From assembly GCA_963847445.1 (NCBI GenBank), contig CAWJZV010000018.1, forward strand, positions 91,322 to 155,321: a stretch of DNA of 64,000 nt. The letters run 5' to 3'. The translations under genes and the position numbers were made by a program. This document shows, piece after piece, positions 3,283 to 30,355 of the stretch. This stretch comes from an uncultured delta proteobacterium (GTDB lineage: Bacteria; Desulfobacterota; Binatia; UBA9968). The notes beneath the pieces were generated by a model, which did not search any database, was not told where the DNA came from, and was given only the letters and a program-made list of their open reading frames with translations. Every line of letters begins with the position of its first letter. Position 1 is the first letter of the stretch.

Positions 3283-3562
3283 GCTCAATACCCCATTAAA
3301 GAATCTGCGTTTGGCTTTCACGAATGTTGTCCTTTCATTTCCTACTTCTCGATCTTGTAGATGTATCACTTCCCTCATTGCTCACGACGCCTGCTTCACC
3401 GCCGCGTCTGCCAGGGAGCGTTCGCGATCGGCAGGATCGAAGTTATGGACGATTTTCCCGAAACCGCCAATGCTGGCCAAGACGTCGACTAGTTTCCGTT
3501 TACGTTTTCAGCTGCATTTGGAACGCTTTCGGGGAAAATAGACTGAACCGATCGAGCGTGTA

Positions 3563-3582
3563 TATTGGACCTTGGTCCAATG
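3563..3582. promoter_or_regulatory. Palindromic operator, copy 1 (TATTGGACCTTGGTCCAATG)
   Basis: Dyad TTGGAC-N4-GTCCAA preceded by TGTA. A minus-strand TATTTT hexamer lies at 3540-3535. Confidence 0.75.
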
Positions 3583-3947
3583 GGGTTCGATCCAGGATGC
3601 GGGATGCGGGATGCGAATTTTTATTCTGACCCGAACTGCTGGTATCCGGGGGCAAAGTGAACAGCAGAGATCTACGAAATGTCGAGACTCAAGAGATGCG
3701 AAACCGAATTAAGGATTTCGCGAACGCACTGCTTCGGTGTTTTTTCTCCAAGCCCGAGGATACACGCTATAGCATCCTCCTTTTCGTCCTGAGTGACCGG
3801 GTCATCCCTCGTATCGCAATTGGCGAGTGGACCCGACTCGATGGCAATGCCCAGCACCTGCTAAAGAGTTTGAGCGTTTAGTTTCATAAATGTACTACTA
3901 TTAGATTCCTAGAATTTCTCAGACCCGTCAATTTTTTCTGCCTCCGC

Positions 3948-4752
3948 TCACTTCGGAAACAAAAATTGGACCTGAAAGCGCAACTGCCAGTCCGGGCCGA
4001 AATCAGGTTTCGCGACATTCCCGTAGGCGGCAAGTTGCACGTTGATCGGTTGCTTACCCACTCGGAATAGTTTTCCCACGCCGCCGCCTATCGGCACAGT
4101 CCAGACATCGCCTGCCTTGTCCGCTTTCCAATCGGCCGTGAGTATCGGCGCAGTGGTCAGATACCAACCAGCCGGCAAGTTGTAGTTGACGAACGGCTGC
4201 GACACCATCGCGTTCACGGCTTTGTCGCCCCAACCGCCGACGGACCACTGATTATTCATCAGCGCGCCAAACACCCACGGCCCTTGCATTGTCAGTGCTA
4301 CGCCCGCCGGTCCCATGCTCCACTTGCCGCTGCCAAGCAGACGATCGTTCGCCGTCGGCAAAGTAAACGTCGGCCCAAAACCCCAAATCAAACTGCTCGG
4401 CTTCGACGGTGAGAAAAAGAATGTCGGGTTGATGTCGCCCCAATCCCGCGGCACTATCGACGCCTGGAAATAACGACGGCTGGCTGATGATCGGCATGAT
4501 CACCCGCGTGATCAAGTTCCAATCTTCCGCTATCTTGATCGGAATCACCGGCTGCACGTTAAGAATGTAAATCATCTTGTCTTTGCTGCCGGCGCCAAAG
4601 TTGAAATTGTTCTGCAGCGGCACACTGATCAGATCCGCCACCGGATTCTGGGTTTGCTTCGCCAGCTCGGATTCGTCCTGCGCCTGCGCTTGCGAAAACA
4701 ATAAACCGATTAGTGCCGCTGTTGCGGCGAGAAATTGAAACGGCTTTAGCAT
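3948..4752 (-). CDS. Outer-membrane beta-barrel protein (family often misannotated 'neuromedin U'), one frameshift near 4440
   Basis: Signal peptide, ELAKQTQNPVADLISVPLQNN, LNVQPVIP, FVNYNLPAGWYL, C-terminal WQLRFQVQFLFPK. Joined from ORFs 4252..4752 and 3948..4454. Confidence 0.75.
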
Positions 4753-5006
4753 AAAGCGAGTTGCTCCTGTTAGTTCCTGTCGAGTGCTGCTGCCGTATGA
4801 GCGCAGCGTGAGGTCGTCGACGTTTCGCTAAACAGCAACACAGCCCGCTACGCCGATTGAAGTGCCAGGGAAATCACACTTCGTCGACGGCAGGACGGTT
4901 CGTGTTGCGTGTCAATGCAATGTCGATCTGATTGGAGTCGCGCGCGCGGCCAGGGCGGCCTTCTCCGAGTGCTCTCAGTACCAAGACCGGTTATTTTACC
5001 TTGCTT

Positions 5007-7370
5007 TCACTTGACCTCGACCGTCACCTTGACGATCTTGCCGGTGAAGGCGTTGTCGCCCTGCTTGTAGTCGGGGGACACGTTGGTCTCGCCGTCCAGA
5101 CCCACGTCGGCGCCTTCATCCGCCGAGAACGCGAACGGCTGGGTCTTGGGAATATGCGCCTTCGGCGACCTTCGTGCCATTGACGCTCAGGATCGACTTG
5201 CCGCCCGTGCCCGGCTTGGCCTGCATCGGGAATGAACTCGTAGACGATCGTGTGCTTGCCGGGCGCGAGAGCCGTGGTACCCGCGATGTTGGTGCGCTCC
5301 AGAGCGAACCAGTTGTACTCGTGGTGCACCTTGCCGTCCTTCATGTACAGCACCCACCCACCGAAGTAGCCGGCCTGGGCGATGATCACGCCTTGCGTCG
5401 TTGGCGTCCTTCACCTCCACCTCGGCCGTGACGGTGTGTGCTACGCCCTTCACGTTGATGAAGGCGTTCTCCATCATGCCCGTCATGCCGGGATAGACTG
5501 TCAGCGTCTTGCGCCCGCCCATCAGGTCGGGACGTCCGGCGATCGCCGGGTTGAAGCGCTCGGAGCGTCGATCGTCGATCGGCAGCACGTTGTTGCGGAT
5601 CGCCTCCTTCATGAAGACCGCCTGCAACTCCTTCAGCTTCTCCGGATGCTTCTTGGCCAGGTCGTTCGCCTGGCTGAAGTCCTCGATCGACGTTGTAGAG
5701 CTCCCACACGTCGTCCGTCAGCGCGGGTATTTTCGCGCTCATATCCCACGGGATCGAATGCCGGGTGCAGGCCATCCAGCCGTCATGGTAGATGCCGCGA
5801 TTGCCGAACATTTCGAAGTACTGCGTCTTCCGGCGATCCGGCGGCCTTGGCATTGTCGGCTGAATAGAGCATCGACACGCCGTCCATCGGCCGCTGCTTG
5901 ATGCCGTTCACCACTTTGGGCTGCGGCAGTTTCGCGGCTTCCAGCGCGGTGGGAGCCACGTCGATCACGATGGTGGAACTGGCTGCGGACTTCGCCCTTG
6001 GCCTTGATGCCCTTGGGCCAATGAAGAACCATGCCGTTGCGCGTGCCGCCGAAGTGGCTGGCGACCTGCTTGGTCCACTGGAACGGCGTGTTGCCGGCCC
6101 AGGCCCAGCCGATGGCGAAGTGCGGGAACGTGGTGGGGTCGCCCCAGGTGTCGATGTGCGCCATCATCTGATCGGCTTTGCCGATGATGCCGTTCAGCGC
6201 CATCATTTCGTTGTAGGTGCCTTCCGGACCGCCTTCGGCGCTCGCGCCGTTGTCGCCCACGATGTAGTAGAAGATCGTGTTGTCCAGCGCGCCGATCGCC
6301 TCCAGTTGCGCCACCAGCCGGCCGACTTCATGGTCGGTGTGCTCGGCGAAGCCGGCGAAGGTTTCCATCTGGCGCTCGAACAGCCGCTTCTGATCGGCGT
6401 TCATGTCGTCCCAGGCGGGAATTTCCTTCGGCCGAGGCGTGAGCTTGGCGTTCGGCCGGGATCACGCCCAGCTTCTTCTGGCGGGCGAAGGTTTCCTCGC
6501 GCAGCTTGTCCCAGCCGCCGCTGAACTCTCCCTTGTACTTTGCGATCCACTCCTTGGGCGCATGGTGCGGAGCGTGCGTCGCACCGGTGGCGAAGTACAT
6601 GTAGAACGGCTTGTCCGGCGTCAGGGCCTGCTGGGCGCTGACCCAGTTGATCGCCTGGTTCGGTCATGTCGACGGTGAAGTGATAGTCCGGGCGTTTGCT
6701 TGTGCTCGACGCGCGTCACGCCGTCATAGATCGCCGGAGCCCATTGGTTGGTTTCGCCGCCGATGAAGCCGTAGAACTTGTCGAAGCCGGATCCCGTGGG
6801 CCAGCGGTCGTAGGGACCGGAGACCGAGACTTCCCATGGCGGGGTTTCGTGATACTTGCCGAAGGCGGCGGTGCTGTAGCCGTTCTGGCGCAGGATTTCC
6901 GCCAGGGGCGTGATCGTCTTGGGCGCACGCCGGTGTTGCCGGGAAAAGCGGTGGCGAGCTCCATGATCGCGCCGGCGTTGTTGGCGTGATGATTGTGGCC
7001 GGTCAGCAGGGCCGTGCGCGGTCGGGCTGCACAGCGCGGTGGTGTGGAAGCGGTTGTACTTGAGGCCGCTGGCCGCCAGCTTTTCCAGCGTCGGCATGCT
7101 GATCGGACCGCCGAAGGCGCTGCTGTGGCCGAAGCCGATGTCGTCGATCAGCACGATCACGACGTTGGGCGCGCCCTCCGGCGCCTTCACCTCGAAACGC
7201 GGCGGCGCCTTGGCCTTGCGCGCGTCCAGCTCGGTAATGGTCGGGTATGCCGGCTCGGCAATCGGCAATACCCTGCGGTCGGGCTCGCCCTTCGCCTGCC
7301 CCGCAGCGTCACCGGCAAGAAACGCAGCTATGACCAACGATAAAAGGTACTGAAGCATCTTGTGATTCAA
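5007..7370 (-). CDS. Arylsulfatase (Cys-type, with C-terminal LamG-like domain), multiple frameshifts
   Basis: [24 protein letters not shown](R) CxPxR motif, [48 protein letters not shown]. Ends [14 protein letters not shown] at 5007. Confidence 0.88.
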
Positions 7371-7452
7371 TGGTTCTCTCCCTTGGAAATTCTTTGGGAC
7401 TTCTTCGACATTAATCTAACATGAGCACTTAGCATCGATGCGTCCTGCCGCC

Positions 7453-29253: not shown

Positions 29254-29425
29254 GGTCGCTCCTTATTCTTTCACTTTCGCTACTCAGTTATCGGACGATC
29301 AGGAACGGATGCCAGGCGCTAAGACCTATTTAAACTCGCTCCCGGTCACTTGCCTTATATCGCCTGTCACTCGAACACTCGACTCTCAGTGTAGCTTCAC
29401 CCGTTTGCGTGACTGCAAATTGCGC

Positions 29426-29512
29426 TCACGTCAATTTTAAACCGATCCCCGACGGCCCCGCGGTGAGCTGCGTGCCGGACTCTTGCGACGACAGCGCGAT
29501 GACCACGCCCCT
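29426..29512 (-). pseudogene. Relic of the 3' end of a paralogue of the 14050-15726 gene
   Basis: GVVIALSSQESGTQLTAGPSGIGLKLT-stop versus GVVISLSSQESGTQLTAGPSGISLKLR-stop. Confidence 0.8.
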
Positions 29513-29843
29513 GCCAATGCGCGACTTCGGCGGCATTGCAATAATTGACTTGACGCTTTTATTAGATTCCTCTGGTTAAAGTTAATTGAGCACAAATTAT
29601 TTCGATTGTCATGCGAATTCTAAAGCGCCGTGCAAAGCCGAAGCTGATGAACGCAGGTTTTTCGTCACAAATCGTCGCCGGCAACTTCCCCTGTCGCTTA
29701 AGCTAAGCCATGATGGCGCTGCAAAACATTTCCCTCGCGTCTATGCACAATTTTCGCGAGATCAGTTACCCCGCTACTCAAAAGAAAATATCATCCGCAA
29801 AATTGGCCATTCGCTCCCATCATCGGCCGGGCATTGAGAACGA

Positions 29844-30244
29844 CTATGTCTCTTCCGAGCCCGTATTGAGAGCCGCGCGCAATGTTTTAATCAACAATTC
29901 GTCGTCGAAGGGCTTGCGCAAAAAAGGCCACCGCCCCGGATGCCAACGCCCGCTCGCGCACGCCGACCTCGTCATGAGCTGTGATAAAGATGATCGGCAA
30001 AGCATTTCCAGCTTGCGCGAGCCACGCCTGCACCTCCAAGCCGGTCATTCCGGGCATTTGCACGTCGAGGATCGCGCAATCGGCGTGAAACGACGGTAAC
30101 CGTTTCTATGAGTTTTGTAAACTGTGCGCCCGAGTTGAACGTTTCGGCGTTCATATCGAGTGATCGGACCAACCGCTTGATGGCGCGACAGACGGATACG
30201 TCGTCGTCCTAGACGATCGCGATAAGAGGTTTGCGTTTGTCCAT
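29844..30244 (-). CDS. Single-domain (receiver-only) response regulator, frameshifted
   Basis: Stitched: MDKRKPLIAIV/DDDVSVCRAIKRLVRS..DCAILDVQMPGMTGLEVQ..LPIIFITAHDE..GAVAF/LRKPFDDELL. Confidence 0.75.
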
Positions 30245-30335
30245 GAACCGTCGCTATCCAAAACCTATCGCGAACGGTTTGAAATCCGCGATTGATCTCT
30301 GTGCGGCGAATCTATCGGAGCAAAAGCAAACTGTA

Positions 30336-30355
30336 TATTGGACCTTAGTCCAACA
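30336..30355. promoter_or_regulatory. Palindromic operator, copy 6 (TATTGGACCTTAGTCCAACA)
   Basis: Preceded by TGTA. A minus-strand TAGATT lies at 30314-30309. ~92 bp upstream of the receiver gene. Confidence 0.78.

Follow-up and report, generated by a model that had tools for sequence, protein, structure and literature searches.

Which protein reads a 20-base palindrome that recurs in front of genes of a cell-envelope cluster in an uncultured soil bacterium, a delta proteobacterium of the Binatia, and with what effect? The question arises from a 64,000-nucleotide stretch of contig CAWJZV010000018.1, analysed as a whole and called the window here, in which this box, read in the transcribed direction, is TATTGGAC-YAAR-GTCCAATA. 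The original prediction was a six-copy operator of a FixJ-type response regulator. Our sequence check found its six sites in place, although one is weak (17688, 8.4 bits) and the set is larger, with five further strong copies beyond the window. Judging by the sequence comparisons below, we consider it very probable that the FixJ/StyR-type regulator encoded at 30563-31186 uses the palindrome as its operator. The boxes and the proposed binder are:

Box 1, 3563..3582, minus strand: CATTGGAC-CAAG-GTCCAATA; -10-like TATTTT at 3540-3535; faces the DUF3604 operon.
Box 2, 7453..7472, minus strand: -10-like TAAGTG at 7431-7426; faces a fragmented sulfatase gene.
Box 3, 15869..15888, minus strand: perfect arms; -10-like TAGGAT at 15846-15841.
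Box 4, 17688..17707, minus strand: degenerate, spacer one base short; faces the OprB porin gene.
Box 5, 17811..17830, no single strand: in the divergent gap between the OprB and cyclic-nucleotide (cNMP)-binding/patatin genes.
Box 6, 30336..30355, minus strand: just downstream of the regulator gene; -10-like TAGATT at 30314-30309.
Response regulator, 30563-31186, minus strand: receiver and LuxR helix-turn-helix (HTH) domains, intact; recognition helix EKTVKVHR; proposed binder.

In the window, five sites match TATTGGAC-N4-GTCCAATA with at most one mismatch and the sixth is weak, while 100 dinucleotide shuffles gave a mean of 0.01 matching sites and a maximum of 1. No box lies to the right of 30355 even with up to four mismatches allowed, as had been foreseen. 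The T-rich spacer YTTR was likewise correctly placed on the plus strand in all copies, an orientation they share because most genes of the island run one way. Box 5 is the exception to this shared orientation: a TA stands at promoter distance on either side of it (TATTAG at 17788, minus strand; TACAAG at 17853, plus strand), and genome G019 keeps the TA on the plus side, toward the patatin gene. All copies were thought to be intergenic, which holds in effect, although Box 3 falls within a mechanical open reading frame (ORF) at 15844-17460. Since OprB homologues cease to match near 16140-16250 and the base at 16139 is absent from one short-read contig, Box 3 is intergenic in effect and the overlap is due to a frameshift near 16.1 kb. 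The counterpart of Box 4 in G019, also before OprB, is a full site, TATTGCACCAAAGTCCAATA; the spacer of Box 4 has one base fewer.

The 7.19-Mb source genome (G000) carries nine sites that deviate in one position or none, where 0.04 would be expected, and one site with two mismatches. These ten strong copies all lie within C2:148-199 kb and C18:1.7-122 kb, the five beyond the window being at C18:1754 and C2:148092, 159975, 187034 and 198633, so that the motif is no genome-wide repeat, a point on which the prediction could have failed. In a matrix scan the ten scored 28-38 bits and the next best site 21.5, the level of the best hit in a reversed-genome control (21.3 bits). Sites of 15-21.5 bits outside the island were rejected, since the reversed control yields ten such sites. 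The two stretches may be parts of one island, because G003 has ten boxes within one 90-kb stretch.

The regulon extends beyond the window and beyond the genus. The exact pattern occurs in 17 of 24 same-genus genomes, in up to ~20 places in one of them. G019 has 23 boxes across 160 kb (C14:510-670 kb; L101-L109), which precede genes for Mla lipid transport, fumarate reductase, molybdopterin oxidoreductase and multiheme cytochromes as well as PPK2, phosphoketolase, glycogen phosphorylase and a universal stress protein. Among 16 other genomes of the order two had a match, once each and with odd spacers, and a control gave one match in each of three genomes; these two (G025 and G029), both without the regulator, were treated as chance. 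A metagenome scan found at least 130 stretches with the box. In an outside panel of 50 genomes drawn from 80 regulator loci, three had at least three matches, a member each of the Gemmatimonadota, Verrucomicrobiae and Alphaproteobacteria (16 places in the last), and Paraburkholderia sp. C35 had two exact ones. Cultured, non-pathogenic carriers include this strain, P. phenoliruptrix BR3459a and P. sp. PREW-6R. Lone one-mismatch matches in five of the 50 were set aside as background, as the control gave 1-6 matches in eight genomes.

The regulator scores above the cut-offs of PF00072 and PF00196, and the adjoining HisKA/HATPase kinase gene overlaps its start. Its closest full-length solved structure is PDB 1yio (E 1.8e-58), which we take to be StyR, compared with E 5.6e-15 for DevR. 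The assignment to the NarL/FixJ family stood, with one refinement: the protein has more in common with the StyR/FixJ subfamily than with either DosR or NarL. It occurs in 12 of the 17 box-bearing and in none of the seven box-free genus genomes, two of the 12 being distant matches (51-54%). In ten genus genomes a box lies 100-500 bp behind the regulator gene, and the position of Box 6 is shared by ten same-genus genomes. Three homologues of 352 amino acids (P0025-P0027) carry an extra receiver-like PF06490 domain, possibly a fusion. A regulator of 93% identity falls in a cluster that has a member labelled Candidatus Binatia.

Island linkage alone could explain such co-occurrence, and therefore the recognition helix was tested. 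A site lay within 1.5 kb in 31 of 34 rows with an EKT(V/I)K helix, most of which had been fetched through the motif and some of which were duplicates, and in none of 95 rows with other helices apart from one EKN row. Of 39 rows for relatives with an EIT or EVT helix, none had such a box in the vicinity. Among EKT regulators collected blind to the motif, four of six had a box, one of them borderline at 17.0 bits. At 12 motif-blind plasmid loci, chosen from the top 24 of 611 matches before the helices were seen, a box stood beside both EKT regulators and beside none of the ten others (Fisher p 0.015). In Paraburkholderia sp. C35 the best match among 13 similar regulators is the one that adjoins an exact box, and boxes adjoin EKT(V/I)K-helix relatives in several phyla. 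Two sister clades with R for K in the helix have an altered box with the same YAAR spacer, TGTCC-YAAR-GGACA with the helix ERT.KAHR and TTGCAC-YAAR-GTACAG with ERT.KL, as seen in Bradyrhizobium and its kin (L006, L009-L011, L013, L017, L020, L027, L037); variant-box loci were also found in the Acidobacteriota (L001-L003, L025). The variant boxes number 1-3 per genome in all eight genomes tested, mostly beside the regulator, and none was found in the source genome. The proposal that the FixJ-type regulator reads the box, which it would bind directly to activate transcription, has thus come through both the co-occurrence and the helix comparisons.

Could another protein read the box, alone or in addition? 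Among eight LuxR-HTH proteins of the source genome that we inspected, only one other has EKTVK, a NarL/DosR-type regulator at C44:36986-37645 (helix EKTVKTH), and it has homologues in G006, G013 and G022, which are among the five box-bearing genomes that lack a match to the island regulator. However, this protein is also present in five of the seven box-free genus genomes (Fisher p 1.0), no homologue was found in four outside carriers (G044, G045, G072, G082), and the boxes cluster around the island regulator rather than around the C44 gene. We regard its role as binder as very unlikely. Slightly less chance still is left to the protein encoded divergently from the kinase gene, which the prediction had named as the alternative:

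AraC-family regulator, 35700..36602, plus strand: divergent from the kinase; rival binder, disfavoured.

This gene accompanies the island, being present in 8 of the 17 box-bearing genus genomes and in none of the seven without boxes, and encodes the sole other DNA-binding regulator found among the 128 of 139 G019 island ORFs that were scanned. However, it is missing from several box-bearing genomes: at E 1e-25 it was not found in G005, which is 100% complete and has nine sites, nor in G044, G045 and G072, and G082, a 16-site genome, has only a 30% match. Members of the AraC family as a rule recognise direct or asymmetric repeats, and their binding cannot account for a box that changes with the helix of the FixJ-type regulator.

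What the island regulator would do at the box is suggested by the surrounding sequence. We pooled 125 distinct sites of at least 22 bits from the genus loci and the source genome (L081, L082 and L094 excluded), oriented by their spacers. Their upstream flanks share no information. On the downstream side the proximal end of the box merges into TA(T/G)ACA at positions 19-24, and TTYG at 37-40 and TA at 42-43 follow; we read these as a -35-like hexamer and, separated from it by 17 bp, an extended -10 element. The TA at position 42/43 is present in 115 of the 125 sites compared with 12 on the opposite side, while a full TAnnnT is found in only 45, the T at -7 often being missing. With the -10 element set at -12 to -7, the box centre would lie near -43.5, where class II activators bind. 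The prediction had put it at about -44 from minus-strand TATTTT at 3540, TAGGAT at 15846 and TAGATT at 30314, all of which are there. The operator keeps a fixed distance to the -10 element and overlaps the -35 element, as in class II activation of sigma70 promoters. The TGTA extension, confirmed for the copies at 3563, 17688, 17811 and 30336, is probably best read as part of the -35 element. At 113 of the 115 sites with a called gene (ten of the 125 have none), the neighbour on the YAAR side points away from the box, and divergent genes often have two opposed boxes. In the metagenome set of 138 sites, the gene points away at 82 of 86 called (52 without a call), and TA stands at promoter distance in 88 sites compared with 24 on the opposite side. 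The proximal half of the box is better conserved than the distal one (28 versus 79 mismatches).

Since the proximal arm overlaps the putative -35 element, the regulator could instead bind the box and repress by covering that element, an effect to which we assign about as small a chance as to AraC binding. A repressor needs no fixed distance, yet 115 of the 125 sites have TA at one of two neighbouring positions; the scarcity of full TAnnnT hexamers is expected of weak activator-dependent promoters, and the position of the box equals that of an activating DosR box. The chance that the box is an RNA hairpin, repeat family or recombination site is negligible: it can fold (8-bp stem, 4-base loop) and has one spacer orientation in all copies of the source genome, as in recombination sites, but the 25 changes in its inner six pairs comprise 20 mismatches and 5 G-U and no compensated pair, T-runs come after no more than 4 or 1 of the 125 sites, the flanks upstream share no sequence, orientation follows transcription, divergent genes have opposed boxes, and no recombinase family appeared among the 128 G019 ORFs scanned.

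Several observations weigh against the FixJ/StyR-type regulator as a class II activator acting through the box. Within the genus, any gene of the island would co-occur with the box, and related genomes are not independent samples. The regulator was unmatched in the box-bearing genomes G006, G011, G013, G016 and G022, which consist of 320-850 contigs each and include the 99% complete G006 (five sites) and the 88% complete G011 (14 sites); a short HTH query, run in these five without a positive control, also gave no match. Two Alloyangia regulators with the helix EKTVKVHR had no genomic box match, only a 5-bit site, and none was found in the SAR324 genome. At metagenome locus L263 a box lies within 5 kb of two non-EKT regulators, and at the verrucomicrobial locus L005 two of four sites face convergent genes. 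The TTGCAC variant has a -10 element at class II distance, and the TGTCC variant mostly lacks a consistent one. The helix-to-box code rests on two switches, each variant box belonging to one clade, and a quick tree of the receiver domains is poorly resolved (54 of 121 forks open). Finally, the genes of the kinase and of a lone receiver protein are broken in this assembly. As to the Alloyangia loci (L038 and L055), the half-perfect 5-bit site at position 11035 follows the EKT regulator and a lone receiver gene, is identical in both strains and precedes a sulfatase gene in L038.

The sensor kinase was predicted to have five PAS domains, a count that agrees with the intact orthologue in G019:

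Sensor kinase, 31183..34852, minus strand: about seven reading-frame pieces in the assembly; start possibly up to 35038.
Fourth PAS domain, 32384..32707, minus strand: FixL/DosP-like; its His aligns with the ligand position of FixL and DosP.

Its layout comprises a periplasmic domain like an ABC substrate-binding one, a membrane segment, five PAS domains, HisKA and HATPase. The likeness of the N-terminal region to ABC substrate-binding domains was noted in the G019 kinase (an Atlas lead, with the family on 29-71% of members). The aligned His, presumably the heme ligand of FixL and DosP, is present in G000, G003 and G019 and missing in L362. In two related runs of one study the contigs skip window positions 32349-33483, roughly three PAS domains with the FixL-like one among them, and therefore the number of PAS domains varies among close relatives. 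The kinases of the Alphaproteobacteria and of Paraburkholderia sp. C35 have one PAS domain each. Oxygen sensing therefore appears plausible here but not a general property. For this genome an oxygen or redox input is possible, with somewhat less than an even chance; the most likely trigger would be a stress that threatens survival, for instance low oxygen or acid. Decay of the island as the cause of the broken genes in the window was considered and found unsupported, as short ORFs occur genome-wide (mean 246 amino acids, 75% coding). A base at 34088, missing from the window, is common to short-read contigs of four runs; we read most reading-frame breaks as assembly noise, although this is demonstrated for few of them.

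The genes in the window that the regulator is predicted to control are:

DUF3604 protein, 853..2895, minus strand: Tat signal.
Sulfatase, 5739..7370, minus strand: in at least two pieces.
Protein of 558 amino acids without Pfam or NCBIfam family, 14050..15726, minus strand.
OprB-family porin, 16100..17460 (end approximate), minus strand.
cNMP-binding/patatin gene (frame broken at ~19.3-19.5 kb) and Lnb_N gene, 17922..20897, plus strand: predicted targets of Box 5.
DUF3300, DUF2950 (in pieces), small Ysc84-like, OmpA and DUF4410 genes, 22777..29253, minus strand: predicted targets of Box 6.
Lone receiver-domain gene, 29844..30244 (approximate), minus strand: one in-frame stop and two frameshifts; FixT-like position.

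The lone receiver gene, which the prediction had not mentioned, is the first behind Box 6, followed by the DUF3300-DUF2950-OmpA-DUF4410 run. Its in-frame stop is created by three extra bases at 30210, which are absent from three of four runs, and is either an assembly error or a real lesion. Behind Box 3 lie the genes of the 558-amino-acid protein, a solute-binding protein, a second sulfatase and a multi-CXXCH/TPR protein. DUF3604 is the first gene behind a box also in G019 and G018. Across all loci we assembled 128 such first genes (132 minus two duplicates and two short ones). They comprise 13 lone receivers, four DUF3300 proteins, four sulfatases and ~45 genes without a family, and further include MlaC/E, RND adaptors, MscS, aquaporin, OmpA, Lnb_N, HdeA, ecotin/PliI, BON, glycogen phosphorylase, phosphoketolase and fumarate reductase subunits. 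The Crp/Fnr and NifA families were represented neither among the 128 first genes nor among the 128 scanned G019 ORFs. In root-nodule bacteria DUF3300 and DUF2950 are described as induced, co-localised and uncharacterised (PMC4653623).

Some further features were recorded alongside. The 558-amino-acid protein has a signal-peptide-like start, its homologues recur beside boxes in relatives, and its nearest Atlas cluster is unnamed and mostly from Binatota. Behind the box at C2:198633 lie genes for an Orn/Lys/Arg decarboxylase and an Asp-Ala exchanger (C2:195588-198212 of the source genome). An ecotin-PliI fusion gene (C18:1786-2646) lies just upstream of the box at C18:1754 and is the first gene behind the L221 box. 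A dispersed repeat of ~122 bp, at window positions 30447-30567 and 46720-46839, begins at the stop codon of the regulator gene and has 40 blastn matches in the genome, itself included. Window positions 3943-4608 and 21943-22663 form an unannotated duplicate stretch (72% identity over 725 bases) that is also present in the island loci of relatives.

We propose that the neighbouring kinase, as gene order and family suggest, phosphorylates the regulator, whose dimer would bind the two TTGGAC half-sites. From the class II position it would activate sigma70-type promoters, with its proximal end over the -35-like TA(T/G)ACA and with TTYG-n-TA serving as extended -10 element; the geometry is observed, while activation and start sites are deduced from it. 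Targets would mostly be envelope, periplasmic, transport and stress genes, and the lone receiver protein may, by analogy to FixT, feed back on the kinase.

This arrangement resembles FixL-FixJ-FixT in its PAS/HisKA/HATPase kinase, whose fourth PAS domain aligns with the heme domains of FixL and DosP, its receiver-LuxR regulator and the lone receiver in the predicted regulon. FixT is described as a feedback inhibitor induced by FixLJ (PMC7078487). However, the regulator (213 bits) and the intact G019 kinase (422 bits) stay below the FixJ and FixL model cut-offs of 255 and 850 bits, and the recognition helix is EKTVKVHR compared with PRTIEVYR in FixJ. Unlike FixLJ, the system has an extra periplasmic domain, five PAS domains and many direct promoters, with no FixK/Fnr gene among the 128 first genes, and its lone receivers lack the 4-Cys motif of FixT.

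The DosR box consensus shares the GGAC-N4-GTCC core. Further likeness lies in the lysines of EKTVK, which match the positions of DosR K179 and K182, in a box centre near -43.5 over a suboptimal -35 element, and in a large stress regulon. K179, K182 and N183 of DosR contact bases (PMC4082495, PMC13486717), reading GGGACT in a box centred at -43.5 (PMC13486717), which fits a role for the aligned helix positions here. The position of N183 is V, however, and the protein is distant in sequence from DevR. Here a PAS/HisKA kinase takes the place of GAF-heme kinases, the outer arms are TATT and not GGG-rich, and boxes are mostly single rather than paired.

To StyR, TodT and NodW the system is linked by the closest full-length structure and a multi-PAS kinase partner, whereas the 1yio helix is EVTVKVHR, and StyR and TodT boxes are AT-rich. 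EvgS-EvgA of E. coli likewise pairs a periplasmic-binding-like kinase with a LuxR-type regulator that governs acid resistance and efflux. Target classes like those of EvgA occur in the islands (RND efflux, amino-acid decarboxylase with exchanger, HdeA, DUF308, sulfatase, AraC), although the regulator match is weak (58 bits versus a cut-off of 251), the box differs and hybrid phosphorelay domains are missing. By these comparisons the system is neither FixJ nor DosR, yet it probably acts in the manner of DosR or another LuxR-family activator of class II.

No published description of the box was found in a search outside of which lay subscription papers, figures, supplements and RegPrecise/CollecTF, and a full-text literature search found no printed binding motif for this FixJ/NodW-type branch. 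The regulon is apparently undescribed, while its mechanism is familiar and in itself textbook. A wider and more doubtful reading, which we think rather unlikely to hold as a whole, is a portable regulon for dormancy or low oxygen, a parallel to that of DosR, shared across phyla by Gram-negative soil bacteria. In such a regulon a FixJ-type regulator with an EKT helix, reading a DosR-like box from the position that DosR uses, would serve up to two dozen promoters over a 160-kb island for envelope remodelling, anaerobic respiration and storage-carbon use, sensor domains would be swapped freely, and a two-residue code (K/R and V/A/L) would predict the boxes of orphan FixJ/NodW-type regulators.

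FixJ/NodW-type regulators are common, with 13 matches in one Paraburkholderia genome. Through the box described here, one branch of them gains a candidate operator and promoter geometry together with a testable helix-to-box code, and the cluster of DUF3300-DUF2950, DUF3604 and sulfatase genes gains a candidate regulator. Since the same regulator and box are present in cultured Paraburkholderia strains, these predictions may be tested by ordinary genetics.

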